Origin: Squalus acanthias
Taxonomy: Eukaryota
Assembly (NCBI GenBank): GCA_030390025.1
Contig: CM059431.1
Location: 154,382,001-154,442,000 of the forward strand
Direction of reading: 5' to 3'
DNA length: 60,000 nucleotides
Under the pieces are notes generated by a model. That model saw only the letters and a program-made list of their open reading frames with translations, ran no database searches and was not told the DNA's origin. Position 1 is the first letter of the stretch. Every line of letters starts with the position of its first letter. Positions 20,878 through 57,930 of the stretch are shown here, piece after piece. The position numbers were made by a program, and so were the translations under genes.

Positions 20878-21736
20878 AGATAGAACTACAGCACAAACAC
20901 ACCCTCCGCAAGCAGAATGAAAAGCTGACAGTCAAAACTACTGGAGGAAAAGAAAGATCTCGAAGATTTTTTTCTGGATGAAAAATATACTAAAATAACG
21001 ATTGTTGCTTCCCTGCGTGAGCGGAGACTGTTCGAAAATGAACTGAAGGCTCGAGGTAGAGAGCGTGAAGAATTACAAAGGAAACACATCGAGAATGAGC
21101 TTGAAGAGATTCAGCTGGTTCAGTTGCTGAGTTTCGCTAAAACAGGCAATCCTGGGAAAACCGTGATAATTGGGTCCCCGGGGATTGGGAAAAGCACCAT
21201 GATACAGAAGATAATTCGGTATTCGGCCGCAGGGAAAATATACCAACAGTATAAAGTTGTCTTTTCTTTTAAGGTTCGACAATTAAATTTAATAAAAGGA
21301 ACAACATTGTTAAATAGCCTGATCTTGGATTCCTACCCCGATTTCGAAAATGAGTTGGAACTTTTGTGGAAAGAACCCGGAAACATATTGTTTATATTTG
21401 ATGACTTTGATGAATTTCATCAAACCATCGATTTCACCGATAATCAGAGAAACAACGACCCCCAATATCAGTGTTTCGATCCCGAGTGCTGCTGTGATGT
21501 GTCAGACATCGTGCGCTGCCTCATACGGGGACAGTTGCTGAAAGGCTGTTCAGTACTGATCAGAAGCCGCCCCTGGAAACTGCAGTCTCTGGGAAAGGGA
21601 ATTATAATTCCAACCGTCGAAATTCTGGGTTTCACCTCTGAGAAAATAAAACAATACTTCGTCCATTATTTTGGAGATAAACATTTTTCGACAGATGTAA
21701 TGGAGTATTGAGCAGAATGAGACATTGTACACCATG
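20878..21736 (+). pseudogene. NLR gene 1 NACHT exon, 5' part
   Basis: Acceptor ttcaAG. EIELQHKHTLRKQNEKLTVK, then +1 T in the T7 run 20967-20973, then LDEKYTKITIV...ENELKARGR. Walker A GSPGIGKST, Walker B ILFIFDDFDE. 2-nt deletion near 21708, then EQNETLYTM. Confidence 0.92.
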
Positions 21737-22029
21737 AGGAGACTCAGAACAAACTGCCACAGGACAGAGAGTGAGGAGACTCAGAACAAACTGCCACAGG
21801 ACAGAGAGTGAGGAGACTCAGAACAAACTGTCACAGGACAGAGTGAGGAGACTCAGAACAAACTGTCACAGGACAGAGAGTGAGGAGACTCAGAACAAAC
21901 TGCCACAGGACAGAGAGTGAGGAGACTCAGAACAAACTGCCACAGGACAGAGAGTGAGGAGACTCAGAACAAACTGCCACAGGACAGAGAGTGAGGAGAC
22001 TCAGAACAAACTGTCACAGGACAGGGAGT
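21736..22029 (+). repeat. Eight near-identical 37-bp monomers at the 5' end of CR1 E2
   Basis: Unit GAGGAGACTCAGAACAAACTGYCACAGGACAGAGAGT; the third copy is 35 bp. Confidence 0.97.
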
Positions 22030-22307
22030 GAGGCGGACCTGGGTGGAGCAACAGCGGCGAGGCGGCGGCGGTAAAAGGCGGCAGCGACCAGGTAGGCTTT
22101 CACCAAGCCGAGAGCAGGAGAGAGGTAAAAAATAATCGAAGTGTGACATCACCAGAAAGCAGGTAAGTGATTGGTTGGTGAGTATTTCTCTTTTTTTTTT
22201 ATACAAAACTTCAATTTTATTGTTTCTCGGGTATCTGTGGTGTAGCAGAGACTGCTGGCATAAATTAACTGAACAGTAAATAATACATTTTTAATTAATT
22301 ACATAGA

Positions 22308-23265
22308 ATGGGAGAGCAGGTGATGTGTTACTGCTGCAATATGTGGGAGCTGGTGGACACCATTGATGTTCACGGTGAACACATTTGCAGTAAGTGTTGG
22401 CTGCTCGAGGAACTCCGGCTCCGTGTTGATGAGCTGGAGTCCGAGCTTCAAACACTGCGACACATCAGGGAAGGGGGAGAGTTACCTGGACTCCGTGTTT
22501 CAGGAGGTAGTCACACCAATTAGAGTAACTAATTCAGAAGTAGCCCGTGGTCAGGGACAGGAAGGTGTGACTACGAGTGAGGCAGGTACAGGGATCCAGG
22601 AGGTAGTGTTGGAGGAGCCGCAGCCCTTGCTCTTGTCCAACAGGTTCGAGGCTCTTACTCCCTGTGTGGATAGGAGCGGGGACTGCAGGGAGGATGAGCA
22701 ACCTGGCCACAGCACCGTGGTAAGGGGGGCCATTCAAGTGGGGGGAGTAAAAAGAAATGTTGTAGTGGTAGGGGATAGTATCATTAGGGGGATAGATAGG
22801 GTTCTTTGCAGCCAAGAGCGAGAGTCCCGAAGGCTGTGTTGCCTGCCCGGTGCCAGGGTTAAGGACATCTCCTCTGGGCTGGAGAGAAACTTGGAGTGGG
22901 AGGGGGAGGATCCAGTTGTAGTGGTCCATGTTGGTACCAATGACATAGATAGGACAAGGAAAGAGGTTCTGCTGAGGGAGTTTGAGCAGCTAGGGGCCAA
23001 ATTAAAAAGCAGAACCTCGAGGGTAATAATCTCTGGATTACTACCTGAGCCACGAGCAAATTTGGCTAGGGTAAATAAAATCAGGGAGTTGAATGCGTGG
23101 CTCAAAGACTGGTGTGGGAAAAATGGGTTTTGCTTCTTGGGACACTGGCACCAGTACTGGGGCAGGAGAGAGCTGTTCCGTTGGGACGGACTTCACTTGG
23201 CCAGTGCTGGGACTAGTGTCCTGGCGAATCGAATAACTAGGGCTGTGGAGAGGGCTTTAAACTAA
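22308..23265 (+). CDS. CR1 ORF1: Cys-rich zinc-finger-like motif, coiled coil, SGNH esterase domain; one frameshift
   Basis: CYCC...CSKC, LEELRLRVDELESELQTL, VVGDS, VHVGTND, DGLHL. One extra G in run 22473-22477 relative to the in-frame homologue at 6118-6441. Confidence 0.9.
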
Positions 23266-23303
23266 TTAGTGGGGGGGAGGTTTCAAGAGAGCAAAAAATA
23301 AAA

Positions 23304-26255
23304 ATGACAACAGAGAGGGTCATAGACATAGGTAGCAGTAGGGGAATCACAAATCAGAGCGTGGCAGGAAGGGACAGAATGTGTGGAGTAAAAGGTAAAC
23401 TGGTAAAAAGTGAAAAAGCAGGAACTAAGTGCCACAAAGCATATTTGAAAGTTCTCTATCTGAATGCACGTAGCATTCGTAACAAAATAGACGAGTTAAT
23501 GGCACAAATAACTACATATGGTTATGATATTGTGGCCATTACAGAAACATGGCTGCAGGGTGACAATGCCTGGGAATTAAACATACCAGGTTATTTAACG
23601 ATCAGGAAGGACAGGCAGGAAGGAAGGGGAGGTGGGGTGGCTATGTTAATAAAGGAAGGAATCACTGTAATACAGAGTAATGATATTGGGTCAAAAAATC
23701 ATGATAATGAAACAGTTTGGGTGGAGATAAGGAATAATAAGGGGAAAAAAACATTAGTGGGCGTAGTCTATAGGCCTCCGAACAGTTGCAACTCTATTGG
23801 ACGGAGTATCAATCAGGAAATAGTTGAGGCATGTAATAAGGGAACATCTATAATTATGGGGGATTTTAACTATCATATTAATTGGACAAATCAAATGGGG
23901 CAGGGCTGCCTTGAGGATGAGTTCATTGAGTGTATTAGGGATGGGTTTCTTGAGCAGTATGTAACTGAACCGACCAGGGGGCAAGCAACCTTAGATCTGG
24001 TCCTGTGTAACGAGACAGGATTAATTAAAAATGTCCTAGTAAAGGATCCCCTTGGAATGAGTGACCATAACATGGTTGAATTCCATATTCAATTAGAGGG
24101 TGAGAAGGTTGGATCTCAAACAAGCGTGCTAAGCTTGAATAAAGGAGACTATGAAGGTATGCGAGCGGAATTGAGTAGAGTGGATTGGGAAAATAGATTA
24201 AAGGGTAAGACGACACATGATCAGTGGTGTACATTCAAGGAGTTATTTTACAACTTCCAAAAAAAATATATTCCACTGAAAAAAAAAGGGTGTAAAAGAA
24301 AGGACAGTCATCCGTGGCTAAGTAAAGAAATTAAGGATAGTATTCGACTAAAAACAAGGGCATATAAGGTAGCGAAATCTAGTGGGAGGACAGAGGATTG
24401 GGAAAACTTTAAAAGGCAGCAAAAAATAACAAAAAGATTGATTAAGAAAGGGAAGATAGATTATGAAAGTAAATTAGCAAAAAATATAAAAACAGATAGT
24501 AAGAGTTTTTATAGTTATATAAAAAGAAAAAGGGTGGCTAAAGTAAATGTTGGTCCCTTAGAGGATGAGACCGGGAAATTAATGGTGGGAAATATGGAGA
24601 TGGCAAAAACACTAAATGAATATTTTGTATCAGTCTTTACAGTAGAGGACACTAAGAATATCCCAACACTGGACAAACAGGGGGCTATAGGGGGAGAGGA
24701 GCTAAACACGATCAAAATCACTAAGGAAGTGGTACTCGGTAAAATAATGGGACTCAAGGCGGATAAATCACCTGGACCTGATGGCTTACATCCTAGAGTC
24801 TTGAAGGAAGTGGCGGTAGGGATTGTAGATGCATTGGTAATAATTTTTCAAAACTCCCTGGATTCCGCTAAGGTCCCGGCAGACTGGAAAACTGCTAATG
24901 TAACACCCTTATTTAAAAAGGGCAGTAGACAGAAGGCTGGTAACTATAGACCGGTTAGCCTAACATCTGTGGTAGGTAAAATTTTGGAGTCCATTATTAA
25001 GGAAACAGTAACAAGACATTTGGATAATCATAATTTAATAGGACAAAGTCAGCATGGTTTTACGAAGGGGAAGTCATGTTTGACAAATTTGCTGGAGTTC
25101 TTTGAGGAAGTAATATATAGAGTGGATAAAGGGGAACCAGTGGACGTAGTGTATTTAGACTTCCAAAAGGCATTTGACAAGGTGCCACACAAAAGATTAT
25201 TGCTTAAGGTAAAAAATCACGGGATTGGGGGTAATATTCTGGCATGGATAGAGGATTGGCTATCTAACAGAAAGCAAAGAGTTGGGATAAATGGTTCATT
25301 CTCAGACTGGCAATCAGTAACTAGTGGTGTTCCACAGGGGTCAGTGCTGGGTCCCCAACTCTTCACAATCTATATTAACGATTTGGAGGAAGGGACCAAG
25401 TGTAACATATCAAAATTTGCAGATGATACAAAGATGGGAGGGAAAGTAGTGAGTGAGGAGGACATAAAAAACCTGCAAGGGGACATAGACAGGCTAAGTA
25501 AGTGGGCAGAGATTTGGCAGATGGAATACAGCACTGGAAAGTGTGAGGTGATGCACTTTGGCAGGAAAAATCCTAGAGCAATTTATTATCTTAATGGCAA
25601 GAAACTGGAGAGTACTGAAGTGCAAAGGGATCTGGGGGTCCTGGTGCACGAAACTCAAAAGGTTAGTATGCAGGTGCAGCAAGTGATTAAGAAGGCAAAT
25701 GGAATGTTGGCTTTCATTGCTAGGGGGATAGAATATAAAAATAGGGAGGTATTGCTTCAGTTGTACAAGGTATTGGTGAGACCGCACCTGGAATACTGCA
25801 TACAGTTTTGGTGTCCTTACTTAAGGAAAGACATCCTTGCTCTCGAGGCAGTGCAAAAAAGGTTCACTCGGTTAATCCCGGAGATGAGGGGGTGGTCATA
25901 TGAGGAGAGGTTGAGTAGATTGGGACTCTACTCATTGGAGTTCAGAAGAATGAGAGGCGATCTTATTGAAACATATAAGATTGTGAAGGGGTTGGATCGG
26001 GTGGATGCGGGGAGGATGTTCCCGATGACGGGTGAGACGAGAACTAGGGGACATAGTCTTAGAATAAGGGGCTGCTCTTTCAAAACTGAGATGAGGAGGA
26101 ACTACTTCACTCAGAGGGTGGTAGGTCCATGGAATATGCTGCCACAAAAAGCTGTAGAAGCTACAACATTAATTAAATTTAAAACAGAAATAGACAGTTT
26201 CCTAGAAGTAAAGGGCATTAAGGGTTACGGGGAGCGGGCAGGAATTTGGACATGA
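23304..26255 (+). CDS. CR1 ORF2: APE endonuclease plus reverse transcriptase, 983 aa, uninterrupted
   Basis: YLNARS, ITETW, YRPP, GDFN, LDLV, SDH (endonuclease). KSPGPDG, YRPVSL, DFQKAFD, GVPQGSVLGP, FADD (RT). Confidence 0.97.
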   Translation: MTTERVIDIGSSRGITNQSVAGRDRMCGVKGKLVKSEKAGTKCHKAYLKVLYLNARSIRNKIDELMAQITTYGYDIVAITETWLQGDNAWELNIPGYLTIRKDRQEGRGGGVAMLIKEGITVIQSNDIGSKNHDNETVWVEIRNNKGKKTLVGVVYRPPNSCNSIGRSINQEIVEACNKGTSIIMGDFNYHINWTNQMGQGCLEDEFIECIRDGFLEQYVTEPTRGQATLDLVLCNETGLIKNVLVKDPLGMSDHNMVEFHIQLEGEKVGSQTSVLSLNKGDYEGMRAELSRVDWENRLKGKTTHDQWCTFKELFYNFQKKYIPLKKKGCKRKDSHPWLSKEIKDSIRLKTRAYKVAKSSGRTEDWENFKRQQKITKRLIKKGKIDYESKLAKNIKTDSKSFYSYIKRKRVAKVNVGPLEDETGKLMVGNMEMAKTLNEYFVSVFTVEDTKNIPTLDKQGAIGGEELNTIKITKEVVLGKIMGLKADKSPGPDGLHPRVLKEVAVGIVDALVIIFQNSLDSAKVPADWKTANVTPLFKKGSRQKAGNYRPVSLTSVVGKILESIIKETVTRHLDNHNLIGQSQHGFTKGKSCLTNLLEFFEEVIYRVDKGEPVDVVYLDFQKAFDKVPHKRLLLKVKNHGIGGNILAWIEDWLSNRKQRVGINGSFSDWQSVTSGVPQGSVLGPQLFTIYINDLEEGTKCNISKFADDTKMGGKVVSEEDIKNLQGDIDRLSKWAEIWQMEYSTGKCEVMHFGRKNPRAIYYLNGKKLESTEVQRDLGVLVHETQKVSMQVQQVIKKANGMLAFIARGIEYKNREVLLQLYKVLVRPHLEYCIQFWCPYLRKDILALEAVQKRFTRLIPEMRGWSYEERLSRLGLYSLEFRRMRGDLIETYKIVKGLDRVDAGRMFPMTGETRTRGHSLRIRGCSFKTEMRRNYFTQRVVGPWNMLPQKAVEATTLIKFKTEIDSFLEVKGIKGYGERAGIWT

Positions 26256-26494
26256 GTCTAGGTTCGGATCGGTCATGGCCCTGTGGGTAGTGGAGCGGGC
26301 CCAGGGACTGTGTAGCCTGATTCTGCTCCTATTTCGTGTGTGCAATTCTGTTAGATGCAGGAGATGTTTCTGTGATAGATAGTAGATTGGCGGTTAGGAT
26401 CAGATCAGCCATGATCTTATTGAATGGCGGAGCAGGCTCGATGGGCCGATTGGCCTACTCCTGCTCCTATTTCTTATGTTCTTATGTTCTTATG

Positions 26495-27353
26495 TGCTAT
26501 AACCCTCTGTACTGCTCGGTCCTCGATTCATTATTAGAGTCACACTGGACAGAAGGAGCGCGGGAGAGACCATTGTCCGCCACAACCAGCACAAAGGTTT
26601 TCTCCGCTTACGTCACAAGCCTTTTGGAGAGATGCGGCTGTGACGCTGTAAACAGTCACGACATGTTGCTGAAACTGGGCGAGTTAGCGTATCAGGGAGT
26701 TTGCAACAAAACCGTCGTGTTTAAGACAGACCAATTCAATCGCTACAGAATCGAAATTTCGTTTGATATCTGTGAGTTTATGATGGGGATTCCAGACAAA
26801 GATCAGCGTAGTGTTGTCTACACATTCTCTCACTCCGTTATGCAGGACTTTGTCGCTGCTCTTGCAAAAAGTCTAAGTACAGCAGGAAATGGACTGACAC
26901 GATTGCTCGATAACGGATACACGTGCGCTGACGACAGATTTAAGACATTTTCACAGTTTCTTGTTGGTCTCTCCTCAAGTAATTCAACTGATCAGCTTGA
27001 GCGAAAATTGGGTCAATTTCCTTCTGAAGCAATTCCTTGTGTGTCGGATTGGCTCAAAAAAAAGTCGAAACACGTGTTACAAATTTAGAAGATGGGCAAA
27101 CCCAAAGGACGTTCTTAAAGATGTTGGATTATTTCCGTGAATTCGGAGATACAAATCTGAAGATGGCCGCATTAACACGGATTAAGAAGGTCATTTTCAC
27201 AAAATGTCGTCTGAAACCATTTGACTGTGTGATTCTTTCAACCACATTAGTGGCCGTTGAACTCATGGAAGAGCTGAATCTGGACACTTGCGGGGTTCAA
27301 GATGAAGGGATCCGTCAGCTGGAGCCCATGCTGCACAAATGTAACATACTCAG
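26495..27353 (+). pseudogene. NLR gene 1 NACHT exon, 3' part (winged helix, HD2, first LRRs)
   Basis: CYNPLYC, LLKLGELAYQGV, YTFSHSVMQDFVAAL, FLVGLSS. -1 frameshift in A8 run 27056-27063. LKPFDCVILS, ELNLDTCGVQDEGIRQLEPMLHKCNILR. Expected GT donor absent after 27353. Confidence 0.92.
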
Positions 27354-48637: not shown

Positions 48638-49595
48638 TAGAACATAAGAACATAAGAAATAGGAGCAGCAGTAGACCAATCTTCCCCTCGAGCCTGCTCC
48701 GCCATTCAATGAGATCATGGCTGATCTGATCCAACCTCAACTCTAAAGAACACAAAAAGTAGGAGCAGGACCAGGCCACTCGGCCCCTGGGCCCGCTCCG
48801 CCAGCCACAGGGCCTTGACCGATCCGAACTCAAACTCATGTCCAATTTCCAGCCCGCTTCCCGTAACCCCTCATACCCTTTACTTCTAGGAAACGGTCTA
48901 TTTCTGTTTTAAATTTATTTAATCAAGTAGCTTCCACAGTTTCCTGGGATAGCAAATTCCACAGACCCACTACCCTCTTAGTGAAAAAGTTTCTCCTCAT
49001 CTCAGTTTGGATAGAGCAGCCCCTTATTCTAAGATTATGTCCCCTAGTTCTAGATTCACCCATCATTTGGAACATCCTCACCACGTCCACCCGATCAAGC
49101 CCCTTCACAATCTTATATGTTTCAATAAGATCGCCTCTCATTCTTCTGAACTCCGATGAGTAGAGTCCCAATCTACTCAACCTCTCCTCGTATGTCCACC
49201 CCGTCATCCCCGGAATTAACCGAGTGAACCTTCTTTGTACTGCCTCGAGAGCAAGTATGTCTTTTCTTAAGTATGGACACCAAAACTGTATGCAGTACTC
49301 CAGGTGCGATGTCACCAATACCCTATACAACTGCAGCAATACCTCCCTCTTTTTATATTCTAGCCCCCTAGCAATAAAAGCCAACATTCCATTGGCTTTC
49401 TTGATCACCTGCTGCACCTGCACACTAACTTTTTGATTTTCTTGCACCAAGACCACCAGATCCCTTTGTACTGCAGTACTTTCCAGTTTCTCGCCATTAA
49501 GATAATAACTTGCTCTCTGATTTTTCCTGCCAAAGTGCATAACCTCACATTTTCCAATATTGTATTGCATCTGTCAAATCTCTGCCCACTCACCC
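48638..49595 (-). mobile_element. 5'-truncated CR1, same subfamily as E2/E3
   Basis: ORF 48923-49570 closely matches the E2 ORF2 C-terminus. Doubled 3' end and TTCTTATG tail. Confidence 0.93.
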
Positions 49596-52423: not shown

Positions 52424-55096
52424 GTTAGTGGTAGCCAAATCTAATTTTCCGTTAGAATTACAACGTTTTATTTAAGATGAGCACTATCTTTTACTCGTTT
52501 ATGTGATGTGGGCTTCGCTGCCAAGGCCAGCATTTATAAGAACATAAGAAATAGGAGCAGGAGTATGCTAATCGGCCCCTCGAGCCTGCACCGCCATTCA
52601 ATAAGATCATGGCTGATCTGATCCTAACCTCAAATTTAAAGAACACAAGAAGTAGGAGCAGCATCCTGGCCACTCAGCCCCTGGGCCCGCTCCTCCACCC
52701 TCAGGGCCCTGACCGATCGGAACTCATCCTCATGACCAATTTCCTGCCCGCTCAACGTAACCCCTCATTACCTTTACCTCTAGGAATCTATCTATTTCTG
52801 TTTTAAATTTATTTAATGATGTAGCTTCCACAGCTTCCTGGGGCAGCAGATTCCACAGATCAACTACCCTCTGAGTGAAGAAGTTTCTCATCATCTCAGT
52901 TTTGAAAGAGCAGCCCCTTAGTCTAAGATTTTGCCCCCTAGTTCTAGTTTCATTCATCCTTGGGAACATCCTTACCGCATCCACCCGATCAAGCCCCTTC
53001 ACAATCTTATATGTTTCAATAAGTTCGACTCTCATTCTTCTGAACTCCAATGAGTAGAGTCCCAATCTACTCAACCTCTCCTCATATGTCCACCCCCTTG
53101 TCCCCGGGATTAACCAAGTGAACCTTCTTTGTACTGCCTCGAGAGCAAGTATGTATTTTCTTAACTATGGACACCAAAACTGCATGCAGTATTCCAGGTG
53201 CAGTCTCACCAATACCTTATATAACTGTTGCAATACCTCCCTGCTTTTATTATCTATCCCCCTAGCAATAAATGCCAACATTCCGTTGGCGTTCTTGATC
53301 ACCTGCTGCACCTGCATACTATTTTTTTTATTTTCTTGCACTAGGACCCCAGATCCCTTCGTACTGCAGTACTTTCCAGTTTCTCGCCATTAAGATAATA
53401 ACTTGTTCTCTGATTTTTCCTGCCAAACTGCATAACCTCACATTTTCAAATATTGTATTGCATCTGCCAAATCTCCGCCCACTCACCCAGCCTGTCTATA
53501 TCCCTTGTAGGTTTTTTATGTCCTCCTCACTTTCTACTTTCCCTCCCATCTTTGTATCATCTGCAAACTTTGATATGTTACACTCGGTCCCCTCCTCAAA
53601 TCGTTAATAAAGAGTTGGGGAATCAGCACCGACCCCTGCGCAACACCACTGGCTTCTGGTTGCCAGTCCGAGAATGAACCATTTATCCCAACTCTCTGCT
53701 TCCTGTTAGATAACCAATCCTCCACCCATTCCAGAATATTATCCCCAATACAGTGATTTTTTATCTTGAGCAATAATCTTTTATGTGGCACCTTGTCGAA
53801 TGCCTTCTGGAAGTCTAAATACACTACGTCCACTGGTTCCCCTTTATCCACCCTGTACGTTACGTCCTCAAAGAACACAAGCAAATTTGTCAGACATGAC
53901 TTCCCCTTCATAAAGCCATGCTGACTTTGTCCTAATAAATTATGTTTATCTAAATGTTCCGTTACTGTCTCCTTAATAATAAACTCCAAAATTTTACCCA
54001 CCGCAGATGTTAGGCTAACTGGTCTGTAATTTCCAGCCTTCTGCCTACTACCCTTTTTAAATAAGGGTGTTACATTAGCAGTTTTCCAATCTGCCGGGAC
54101 CTTTGCTGAGTCCAGGGAATTTTGGAAAATTATTACCAAAGCAGCCACAATCCCTACTGCCACTTCCCTCAAGACCCTAGGATGTAAGCGATCAGGTCCA
54201 GGTGATTTATCCGCCTTGAGTCCCATTATTTTACTGAGTACCAATTCCTTAGTGATTTTAATCGTATTTAGCTCCTCCCCCCCTAGAGCCCCCTGTTTGT
54301 CCAGTGTTGGGATATTCTTAATGTCCTCTACCGTAAAGACTGAAACAACATATTTGTTCAGCATTTTTGCCATCTCCATGTTTCCCACCATTAATTTCCC
54401 GGTCTCTTCCTCTAAGGGAACTACGTTTGCCTTAGCCACTCTTTTTCTTTTTATATAACTATAGCACTCTTGCTATCTGTTTTTATATTTATTGCTGATT
54501 TTTTTTCATAATCTATCTTCCCTTTCTTAATCAATCCTTTAGTTAAATTGTGCTGTCTATTCAAGACGTCACAATCTTCTATCCTCCAATTAAGTTTGGC
54601 TACCTTATTTGTCCTTGTTTTTAGTCGGATACTATCCTTATTTTTTTTTACTCAGCCACGGATGGCTGTCATTTCTTTTACACCCTTTTTTCCTCAGTGG
54701 AATATATTTCTTTTGAAAGTTGTGAAATAACTCCTTAAATGAAAACCACTGCTCATGTACCGTCTTACCCTTTAGTGTATTTTCCCAGACAACTTTAATC
54801 AATTCCGCACTCATACCATCATAGTCTCCTTTATTCAAGCGCAGTACGCTTGTTTGAGAACCAACCTTCTCACCCTGTAATTGGATATGGAATTCAAATA
54901 TGTTATGGTCACTCATTCCAAGGGGATTCTTAACTAGGACATTATTAATTAATCCTGACTCATTGCACAGGACCAGGTCCAAGTTTGCTTACCCCCTTCT
55001 ACGTTCAGTTACATACTGCTCAAGAAATGCATCCCTAATACACTCAATAAACTCTTCCTCAAGGCTGCCCTGCCCAATTTGATTTGTCCAGTTAAT

Positions 55097-55860: not shown

Positions 55861-57629
55861 AATATGATAGTTAAAATCCCCCATAATTATAGCTGTTCCC
55901 TTATTACATGCCCCAACACTTTCCTGATTAATACTTCTTCCAGCAGAGTTGCAACTATTAGGATGCCTGTATACTACTGCCACGAGTGTGTTTTCCCCTT
56001 ATTATTCCTTATCTCCACCCAAACTGTTTCATTATCCTGATCCTTTGACCCAATATCATTTCTCTGTATTACACTGATTCGTTCCTTTATTAACATAGCC
56101 ACCCCACCTCCCCTTCCTTCCTGCCTGTCCTTCATGATTGTTAAATACACTGGCATATTTAGTTCCCAGTCGTTCTCACCTGCAGCCATGTTTCTGTAAT
56201 GGCCGCAAGATCATACCATACGTAGTTATTTGTGCCGTTAACACGTCCATTTTGTTACGAATGCTACGTGCGTTCAGATAAAGAACTTTCAAATATGTTT
56301 TGTGACACTTAGTTCCTGCTTTTTCCTTTTTTAACAATTTACCTTTTACTCCATACCTTCTGTCCCATCCTGACACACTTTCCTCTGTCTCCCTGCTCAG
56401 GTGCCCAACCCCCTGCCACTTTAGTTTATACCCTCCCCAACAGCACTAGCAAACACTCCCCCTAGGACAGCGTTCCCGGCCCTGCCCAGTTGCAGACCGT
56501 CCGGTTTGTACTGGTCCCACCTCCCTCAGAACCGGTTCCAATGTCCCAGGAATTTGAATCCCTCCCCCTTGCACCATTCCTCTAGCTACGTATTCATTTG
56601 AAATATCCTCCTATTTCTACTCTGACTAGCACGTGGAACTGATAGCAATCCTGAGATTACTACCTTTGAGGTCCTATTTTTTTAATTTACCTCCAAACTC
56701 CCTATATTCTGCTTTTAGGACCTCATCTCCTTTTTTAGCTATCTCGTTGGTGCTATATGCACCATGACAGCTGGCTGATCGCCCTCCCACTCCAAAATGT
56801 TCTGTAGCCGCTCTGAGACATGCTTGACCCTTGCACCAGGGAGGCAACACACCATCCTGGAGTCTCGTTTGCGGCCGCAGAAACGCCTATCTATTCCCCT
56901 TACAACTGAGTCCCCTATCACTTTAGCTTTTGCACACTTTTTCCTCCCAGCCTGTGCAGCAGAGCCACCCATGATGCCAGGAAGTTGGCTGCGGCTGCCT
57001 TCCCCTGATAAGTCATCCCCCCCAACATTATTCAAAGTGGTATATCTGTTTGAGAGGGGGATGTCCACAGGGGACCCCTGCACTACCTGCCTGCACCTCT
57101 TACTCTGCCTTGTGGTCAACCATTTATTTCCTGCCTGTACACCCTTTGCCTGCGGTGTGACCAACTCGCTAAACGTGCTATTCACGAGGTTCTCAGCATC
57201 GCGAATGCTCCAATATCTATCCGATCGCAGCTCCAGCGCCGTAATGCGGTCTGCCAGTAGCTGTAGCTGGATACACTTCCCGCACACATGGTTGCCAAGG
57301 ACACCGGAAGGGTCCCTGATACCCACATAGCAGAGGAGGAGCATACCACGGGGCCGAGCTCTCCTGCCATGACTTACCCTTTAATTAATTCAAATTAAAT
57401 TAAAAGATTTCAATCCCACCAATTGCACTACAGTTAAATGATATACTTAAGTGTCATGGTTTACCAACAGTCCCCGCTACACCACAGAGAGCTTAGAAAC
57501 TATAAACCACAGAGTTTAAGTTTAAAAAGAGAGAAATACTCAACAACCAATCACTTACCTGCTTTCTGGTGACGTCACACTTCGATTACTTTTTACTTCT
57601 CTCCCTCCGAGCTCGGAGATTGGTAAGCC

Positions 57630-57930
57630 TCCCTGGTCTCTTCGCCTCTTAAACCTCGCCGCCGCCGCCTGCCTGGTTCCTCGCAGTTCTGCCGCCGCTC
57701 TGATGCCTACCTGTTCTCTGCCGCCACTTAAACCTCGCCGCCGCCGCCGACTGGTTTTCCCGCAGGTCCGCCGCCGCTCTGAGGCCTGCCTGGTCTCTTC
57801 GCCTCTTAAACCTCGCCGCCGCCGCCGCCTGGTTCCCCGCAAGTCCGCCGCCGCTCTGAGACCTACCTGGTCTCTGCCGCCTCTTAAACGTCGATGCCGC
57901 CGCCGCCGCCTGGTTCCCCGCAGGTCCTCC
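57630..57930 (-). repeat. About four GC-rich 78-79 bp monomers at the 5' end of CR1 E3
   Basis: TTAAAC recurs at 57649, 57728, 57806, 57884, with (GCC)n tracts. Confidence 0.9.

Follow-up and report, generated by a model that had tools for sequence, protein, structure and literature searches.

A low-divergence CR1 element within an NLR exon of Squalus acanthias that was probably already a pseudogene

Results

The window, by which we mean the whole 60,000-nucleotide stretch of Squalus acanthias DNA that was analysed, contains the NACHT exon of an NLR gene divided by a CR1 LINE; all features described here are on the plus strand. The 5' part of the exon, a pseudogene (20900..21736, start approximate), matches the NACHT domain (PF05729, E 1e-30), and the 3' part (26495..27352) encodes the winged helix and HD2 (PF17779 and PF17776). 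The element between them is 4,758 bp long (21737-26494), its ends being blurred by 1-2 bases of microhomology.

The element begins with an array of 8 units of 37 bp (21737..22033), shortened relative to most sibling copies; repeat analysis gave 8.1 units with 96% matches, the array match beginning at 21735. One leftover GC-rich monomer of a 76-bp type (22032..22097) follows; in sister copies, monomers of this type make up the entire head array. ORF1 (22308..23265) has a Cys-rich N-terminus, a predicted coiled coil (judged from the sequence by eye) and an SGNH esterase domain (PF13472, E 3.5e-10). In intact siblings it encodes 318 aa, in which the catalytic Ser, Asp and His motifs can be read, whereas one extra base near 22471 limits the product of the window copy to 71 aa. 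Just 5' of the ORF1 stop is a putative slippery-type heptamer (23256..23265), at which point the minus-one frame, that of ORF2, has already opened; this region is variant in just one of 39 siblings. ORF2 (23304..26255, with the ATG at 23304 in an open frame of 23241-26255) encodes 983 aa without interruption and matches PF03372, PF14529 and PF00078, i.e., the APE endonuclease and reverse transcriptase (RT) in a single frame. Its RT region is about 54% identical to bird and turtle proteins, and the best RT protein matches, ranked by similarity search and not on a reference tree, are from bird, turtle, amphibian and ray/shark (about 45-81% identity).

The 3' end is doubled. A degenerate first copy of the tail (26256..26345), which aligns to the terminal tail, is followed by a spacer of about 50 bp (26346..26395) that belongs to the young lineage only; the two older copies with a doubled tail in the window lack it. 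The terminal tail (26396..26494) has predicted hairpins (fold energy computed without a shuffle control) and three 8-bp repeats (3.1 copies), and no poly-A. The window copy shows canonical traits of vertebrate CR1: an EN-RT ORF2, an esterase ORF1 (broken here), a hairpin and 8-bp tail, and a short target duplication. The length of the element, its uninterrupted EN-RT frame, its homogeneous 5' array and its intact tail all agree with the first-pass annotation. That annotation had overlooked the ORF1 frameshift, the shortening of the head array and the stop in the NLR frame ahead of the element.

When the element is removed, the NLR flanks rejoin in frame, and only ATG is duplicated. The left copy of this 3-bp target duplication is at 21734..21736, where the last two bases show 5' microhomology with the array unit, and the right copy is the last three bases of the terminal tail. 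The empty-site join was continuous at all of 29 NLR paralog loci, with zero gap at 28 of them (BLAST). These results bear out the earlier observations that the flanks rejoin exactly and that the junctions share ATG alone. The microhomology between tail and target, noted previously as a possible primer, is also present at the junctions, but it is not special to this copy. Among 34 of the 40 copies (four with the 5' end out of reach and two without a tail were left out), the number of junction-shared bases ranged from 0 to 8 and averaged 2.6, versus 1.45 after permutation, and none of 2000 permutations reached 2.6. In the window copy 3 bp are shared, although the measure, which maximally extends the tail, scored it as 2. 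Such sharing is family-wide and a published trait of CR1. In five public runs (share of words 0.04-0.06, with no RNA run listed among them), contigs over the left flank (four runs) and the right junction (four runs) were short, with many differences, and mostly derived from paralogs. Neither junction was bridged by any of the pieces listed. One run had a single contig that carried on past the left flank into sequence of the empty site; because paralogs have that sequence too, this contig speaks neither for nor against the polymorphism suggested in the first-pass annotation, and bears no more on the indels.

The 5' part of the NLR exon is 78-89% identical to 29 paralogs, the majority of which lie on one contig (C7), and only nine of these 29 have exons open across the site. 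Alignment to eight paralogs revealed one extra base in a T run at 20966, which causes a frameshift, and a 2-base deletion, relative to all eight, with a resulting stop codon at 21709-21711 (21706..21711). Owing to this deletion, the NLR frame 20929-21711 terminates 25 bases ahead of the element. In the 3' part, paralog alignment placed a one-base deletion near 27063 and a further indel near 27352, the probable exon end. Besides the element, the exon carries three frameshifts and a fourth indel, and it lacks one open exon even though NACHT, winged helix and HD2 are all present. An additional stop at 26649 suggested by codon comparison was an alignment artefact; the frame 26321-27088 is open. 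The earlier placement of the element inside an NLR immune gene is correct as to the NACHT exon, but lesions other than the element make this exon a pseudogene. If the exon and the element accumulate indels at an equal rate, the siblings' indel rate leads one to expect that 0.23-0.33 indels arose in the 1.8-kb exon after the element had inserted, and the Poisson probability is 1e-4 to 4e-4 for four or more and 0.02-0.04 for two or more.

A genome search for near-identical copies, proposed in the first-pass annotation, yielded 39 siblings that are 99.0-99.8% identical to the window copy (the best 40 of 2,616 candidates, with a mean pairwise distance of 0.19% in the set). Both frames were open in 23 of 37 complete siblings, two (L036 and L053) being excluded because the fetched stretch held no tail; a strict test gave 22 of 38, or 23 with L031, which has a variable ORF1 anchor. 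These proportions are biased upward, since the siblings were picked by score. Among the first listed matches on one contig (C1), 6 of 12 copies had both frames open. The window copy, with its broken ORF1, is not a copy of this kind. A 31-mer overlapping the spacer had 9,195 exact matches in the genome, versus 1,472 for an ORF1 23-mer, which counts copies reaching ORF1. ORF2 variants common to several copies were mostly silent (8 silent, 4 replacement) and those found in single copies were not (22 silent, 29 replacement), as expected if the source lineages were under selection and the copies were not.

The closest siblings differ from the window copy by 3-4 substitutions over 4.45 kb, in which the private changes of the element are one substitution and one indel. 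This low divergence supports the proposal of a very recent insertion. The statement that other CR1 copies are decayed is true within the window (65-86% identity) but not genome-wide, and the idea that this genome has few intact CR1s should be corrected. The CR1 family is young and abundant and looks recently active.

The family bears two different 5' heads, arrays of 76-bp or of 37-bp units, on bodies that are about 99.5% alike. At least 86 copies are 37-bp-headed. In the siblings, arrays of this type have as few as 5 units and as many as 50 or more, the longest reaching at least 1.8 kb.

Discussion

We consider it likely that this locus holds a copy of a young, abundant CR1 family, with a shortened head array and a frameshifted ORF1, that entered an NLR exon through target-primed reverse transcription when this exon had likely already become a pseudogene. 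The insertion as such is an ordinary one. The endonuclease would have nicked the target beside ATG, and the RNA tail would have paired with 3-4 matching target bases for priming. Copying may then have halted inside the eighth head unit, whose end would have been joined through a 2-base match; the likely mode is ordinary target-primed reverse transcription. The 3-bp target duplication is normal for CR1, for which the available text of PMC4245944 gives a peak near 3-5 bp.

The NLR exon was probably dead before the insertion, because, apart from the insertion, it is disrupted by three frameshifts and one further indel, with a stop 25 bases before the element. If so, the insertion would have been cost-free and tolerated. 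That the element instead disabled a working NLR gene, the frameshifts being later events or assembly errors, seems improbable. In other respects the exon is complete, its identity to the open paralogs L071-L073 is 89-91%, and two of the NLR indels fall in single-base runs; two of the four, and possibly the ORF1 insertion as well, could be assembly errors. However, neither the 2-base deletion (21706) nor the indel near 27352 lies in a run, and the element, with a single private substitution and a single private indel over 4.45 kb, is too young for the 1.8-kb exon to have gained four indels since. Misassembly, in which a high-copy repeat was joined into an NLR paralog, is far less probable still. 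The paralog cluster is rich in repeats and both junctions are taken from the assembly, but base-exact rejoining of the flanks, a 3-bp duplication and microhomology are typical of a real insertion, and a misjoin is not expected to produce them.

It is also unlikely that the window copy itself still retrotransposes, with ORF1 either dispensable or supplied by siblings. ORF2 is open with its own ATG, the tail is intact and eight head units are left; moreover, the esterase ORF1 of zebrafish ZfL2-1 was reported dispensable in HeLa assays, according to the available part of PMC3905857. On the other hand, a 32-mer over the ORF1 frameshift has one genome match, the window copy itself. Four other copies share its substitution at 25114, none of which has the linked marker at 25914; with the frameshift and the pair of linked markers confined to this copy, these sites revealed no daughter copy, and we rejected it as a source element. 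At ORF2 residue 604 the window copy has Ile, where every aligned sibling, and also P0022 (79% identical), has Thr. Translation of ORF2 may depend on ribosomes that arrive at the ORF1 stop and shift frame or re-initiate there; in that case, the early end of ORF1 at codon 72 would block it. The suggestion of possible activity is thus weakened for the window copy and fits the family. We infer that the window copy is a dead end and that its intact siblings are the likely sources; its uninterrupted ORF2 means that its death is not proved.

The zebrafish element ZfL2-1 (CR1-1_DR) belongs to the L2 side of the CR1/L2 group. As described in the available portions of PMC4245944 and PMC3905857, it shares with the shark family an esterase ORF1, target duplications of 1-8 bp and 5' joining by annealing, but it was shown to jump in cultured cells, whereas the shark family is known here from its sequence. 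Canonical vertebrate CR1, in the text available for PMC13343379, likewise has an esterase ORF1, an APE-RT ORF2 and no poly-A tail. That text attributes 22-34% of shark and ray genomes to CR1-group elements and mentions 5' repeats only for ORF1-less elements, as 1-5 units of 100-500 bp; the present family, unlike this description, bears ORF1 together with 37-bp units that number from 5 to 50 or more. HER1, a LINE of sharks and rays that is named in a table of PMC3747384, may be related to the present family. Intact avian CR1s, from another host group, share the single EN and RT frame and the 3' hairpin with an 8-bp microsatellite, and some birds have large numbers of full-length copies, with 1,125 in the assembly of one parrot; the available part of that report mentions neither a doubled 3' tail nor long head arrays (PMC8665684). 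The host exon may belong to the shark expansion of NLRP-related NLRs, a lineage-specific expansion of NACHT genes, as outlined in the accessible text of PMC8455134, but the window copy is a pseudogene.

One tentative explanation of the two heads, perhaps somewhat short of an even chance, is that the family is currently active and is replacing its promoter: the 37-bp array may have been set before one leftover 76-bp monomer in a sub-lineage of at least 86 copies, while the 76-bp form persists. The direction proposed depends on the structure of the heads and on a 78-bp array of greater age that also lies in the window. A comparable situation, in the available part of PMC5381506, is that of mouse and rat L1, with tandem 5' monomers that serve as promoters, variable truncation inside the array, and 5' UTR replacement giving unrelated heads on related bodies. 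L1 is, however, another LINE clade with monomers of about 200 and 650 bp versus 37 and 76 bp, and the promoter role of the CR1 arrays is putative. Our literature search, which covered few subscription journals, found no paper on this family or on replacement of CR1 5' heads.

The locus itself carries little weight: the LINE is damaged, and its host is a dead paralog from an immune cluster that evolves by birth and death. The family could matter more, since intact, near-identical copies with two competing heads would make CR1 promoter function, the need for ORF1 and the translation of ORF2 testable. If head replacement is true, a CR1 in a vertebrate that mutates slowly would be undergoing 5' turnover in the manner of mammalian L1, and many naturally intact copies would be usable for a CR1 activity assay. 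The family's intact copies and two heads would also show that retrotransposition remains a source of variation in a lineage whose point-mutation rate is very low.

Structure of the CR1 element and its host exon

The CR1 LINE reported at 21737-26494 by the first-pass annotation was found at that position, with the features ascribed to it: a homogeneous 5' array (21735-22033, 8.1 units of 37 bp, 96% matches), an intact tail (26471-26495, 3.1 units of 8 bp; both by Tandem Repeats Finder) and an uninterrupted 983-aa ORF2, whose frame is open over 23241-26255, with an ATG at 23304 and endonuclease and RT domains; matches to the RT include ray and shark proteins. By its domains, tail and junctions the element is a canonical CR1 (compare the available text of PMC13343379 and PMC8665684) and adds another CR1 of an already known type. 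This copy is not intact. ORF1 begins at 22308 and, in near-identical copies elsewhere in the genome (siblings), encodes 318 aa with an SGNH esterase; in the window copy, one additional base near 22471 shortens the product to 71 aa, and a 32-mer spanning the frameshift has a single genome match, the window copy. A slippery-type heptamer (23256-23265), nearly invariant among siblings, is located in the overlap of ORF1 and ORF2, shortly ahead of the stop codon of ORF1; ORF2 occupies the minus-one frame.

The left flank encodes an NLR NACHT domain and the right flank the winged helix and HD2. As claimed, the flanks rejoin in frame when the element is removed. All 29 paralog loci have continuous sequence across the site, and in 28 of them BLAST gives a gap of zero. 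The left flank was searched against the same genome (3.71 Gb; 296 candidates, best 40 scored), and most of these 40 matches lie within 153.8-159.5 Mb of contig C7. Alignment of the exon without the element to eight paralogs revealed an extra base at 20966, a two-base deletion at 21706, a one-base deletion near 27063 and, where the exon probably ends, an indel near 27352; the 21706 deletion produces a stop at 21709-21711, 25 bases ahead of the element. The host is an NLR pseudogene. The sibling indel rate predicts 0.23-0.33 indels per 1.8 kb since insertion (P = 1e-4 to 4e-4 for four or more, 0.02-0.04 for two or more); since the observed indels exceed this, the gene was, on the sequence comparison, probably already dead when the LINE was inserted. 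The exon is open across the insertion site in only 9 of the 29 paralogs, so most members of this cluster are dead. The closest paralogs, L071, L072 and L073 (C7, 154.71, 153.80 and 155.52 Mb), have open 614-codon frames across the exon, and L071 and L072 appear to be a recent duplicate pair. An expanded NLRP-related family is described for the whale shark in the available part of PMC8455134. With regard to the possible polymorphism raised by the first-pass annotation, five public runs (contigs only) contained 4-6% of the words of the NLR flank; contigs compared with the left flank and with the right junction, from four runs each, were short and mostly paralogous, and no listed one bridged either junction.

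Mechanism and age of the insertion

The target ATG is present at both element ends, the match of the tail repeat extends by one more base of the right flank (four bases in all), and the last two left-flank bases match the array unit. The simplest reading is a 3-bp duplication plus base pairing at both ends. Among 34 copies, bases common to both junctions averaged 2.6, against 1.45 (sd 0.21) with permuted flanks, and none of 2000 permutations reached the observed mean; 13 of the 34 shared four or more bases (6.5% expected), and shared bases within the tail averaged 1.12 against 0.75 (p 0.0075). According to the accessible part of PMC4245944, target duplications peak at 3-5 bp for L2 and very similarly for CR1, and truncated inserts have microhomology at 5' junctions. 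From the junction statistics and this published pattern, the tail-target microhomology earlier proposed is likely the right mechanism, and is already known.

The element had also been called very recent and possibly active. Its low divergence agrees with a recent insertion: it differs from the majority at five sites in 4,452 bases, and its nearest siblings are 3-4 substitutions away. Activity of this copy is made less likely by the frameshifted ORF1, and daughters with linked markers were not found. Three of the five sites are common to a sub-lineage of 5-7 copies and one to L031 only, whereas the fifth (25114) was in none of 37 aligned siblings; it gives Ile instead of the Thr kept in siblings and in P0022, which is 79% identical. 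The 25114 letter recurs in four other copies of the genome, none with the linked letter at 25914; they are thus recurrences, and the window copy was ruled out as their parent. At the rate given for another species, the epaulette shark (7e-10 per base per generation, in the available text of PMC10587355), about 3e5 generations are needed, by our arithmetic, for one substitution per 4,452 bases; fixation of a young insertion is therefore quite possible, and low divergence would not amount to current insertion. Nor is the copy necessarily dead, since the esterase ORF1 of the zebrafish LINE ZfL2-1 is reported, in the part of PMC3905857 available, to be dispensable in HeLa cells.

The CR1 family in the genome

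A search of the same genome with the first 864 bases gave 2,616 candidates; among the best 40, which were scored, 39 siblings were 99.0-99.8% identical to the window copy, 37 of them reaching the tail in a one-piece match. In the alignment of 38 bodies (window copy included, two dropped), the mean pairwise distance was 0.19%; ORF1 was whole in 30, ORF2 in 29, and both were open in 22 (23 counting L031), in a set of best matches biased toward intactness. Both were open in 6 of 12 copies picked from the first listed matches on contig C1. A 3' UTR 31-mer has 9,195 exact genome matches and an ORF1 23-mer 1,472, which indicates that near-full-length copies are common. Thus, the claim that all other copies are decayed holds inside the window (65-86% identity) but not genome-wide. 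ORF2 variants shared between copies were 8 silent and 4 replacement, and single-copy variants 22 and 29, a pattern that fits selection on source lineages.

The 38 bodies contain 31 indel events, assembly errors included. L069 (10 events), L111 and L112 have far more small indels than other copies, possibly reflecting lower local assembly accuracy; L112 adjoins a run of N. Young copies L043, L050, L052 and L054 interrupt CR1 sequence of greater age, an expected outcome given the CR1 content of the genome.

In the young family the 3' tail is present twice, the first copy being degenerate and separated from the terminal one by a spacer of about 50 bp. This spacer is absent from two older window copies (85-86%), whose tails are also doubled, and the oldest copy ends in one tail only; three apparent 3'-end stages are seen within the window (26256-26494, 52536-52830, 48639-48930 and 2410-2700).

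Two types of 5' head

The head array of the window copy, at 8.1 units, is shorter than the family norm: the 34 copies in which the end was reached have 5 to 45 units (median about 17) in 23 different starting phases, and one sibling has 50 or more. None of the copies showed a shared 5' start. These variable lengths and phases indicate that the array belongs to the family as a whole and that every copy is truncated inside it. The array comprises 40 units in L028 (contig C3, near 199.477 Mb), 45 in L020 and at least 50 in L021, the longest reaching 1.8 kb or more.

In the window copy (head region 21737-22097) and in each of the 39 siblings, the 37-bp array precedes exactly one 76-bp-type monomer. 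In four further copies (L106, L107, L108 and L110) the head consists of 3-6 GC-rich 76-bp monomers, with zero 37-bp units, on bodies 99.4-99.5% identical to that of the window copy; another, L109, groups with the siblings, having the 37-bp array plus one leftover 76-bp monomer. The sequence that joins the 37-bp array to the core has 86 exact genome matches, and the monomer-core border common to both head types has 528. An older CR1 relative on the minus strand of the window (body pieces at 55861-57670) carries four GC-rich monomers of 78 bp (57627-57927), degenerate but related to those of the 76-bp head, which suggests that the 37-bp head may be the newcomer. According to the available part of PMC5381506, mammalian L1 elements commonly replace their heads, whereas among non-mammals this was found in only one lizard family; with two heads on near-identical bodies, this CR1 family resembles L1. 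We tentatively propose, with some doubt, that the family is currently active and midway through replacement of its 5' head.

The two head types, the doubled 3' tail and the ORF1/ORF2 heptamer of the family are more noteworthy than the locus. If the family is truly active and in the middle of head replacement, it would be of greater interest than the insertion in the window itself.
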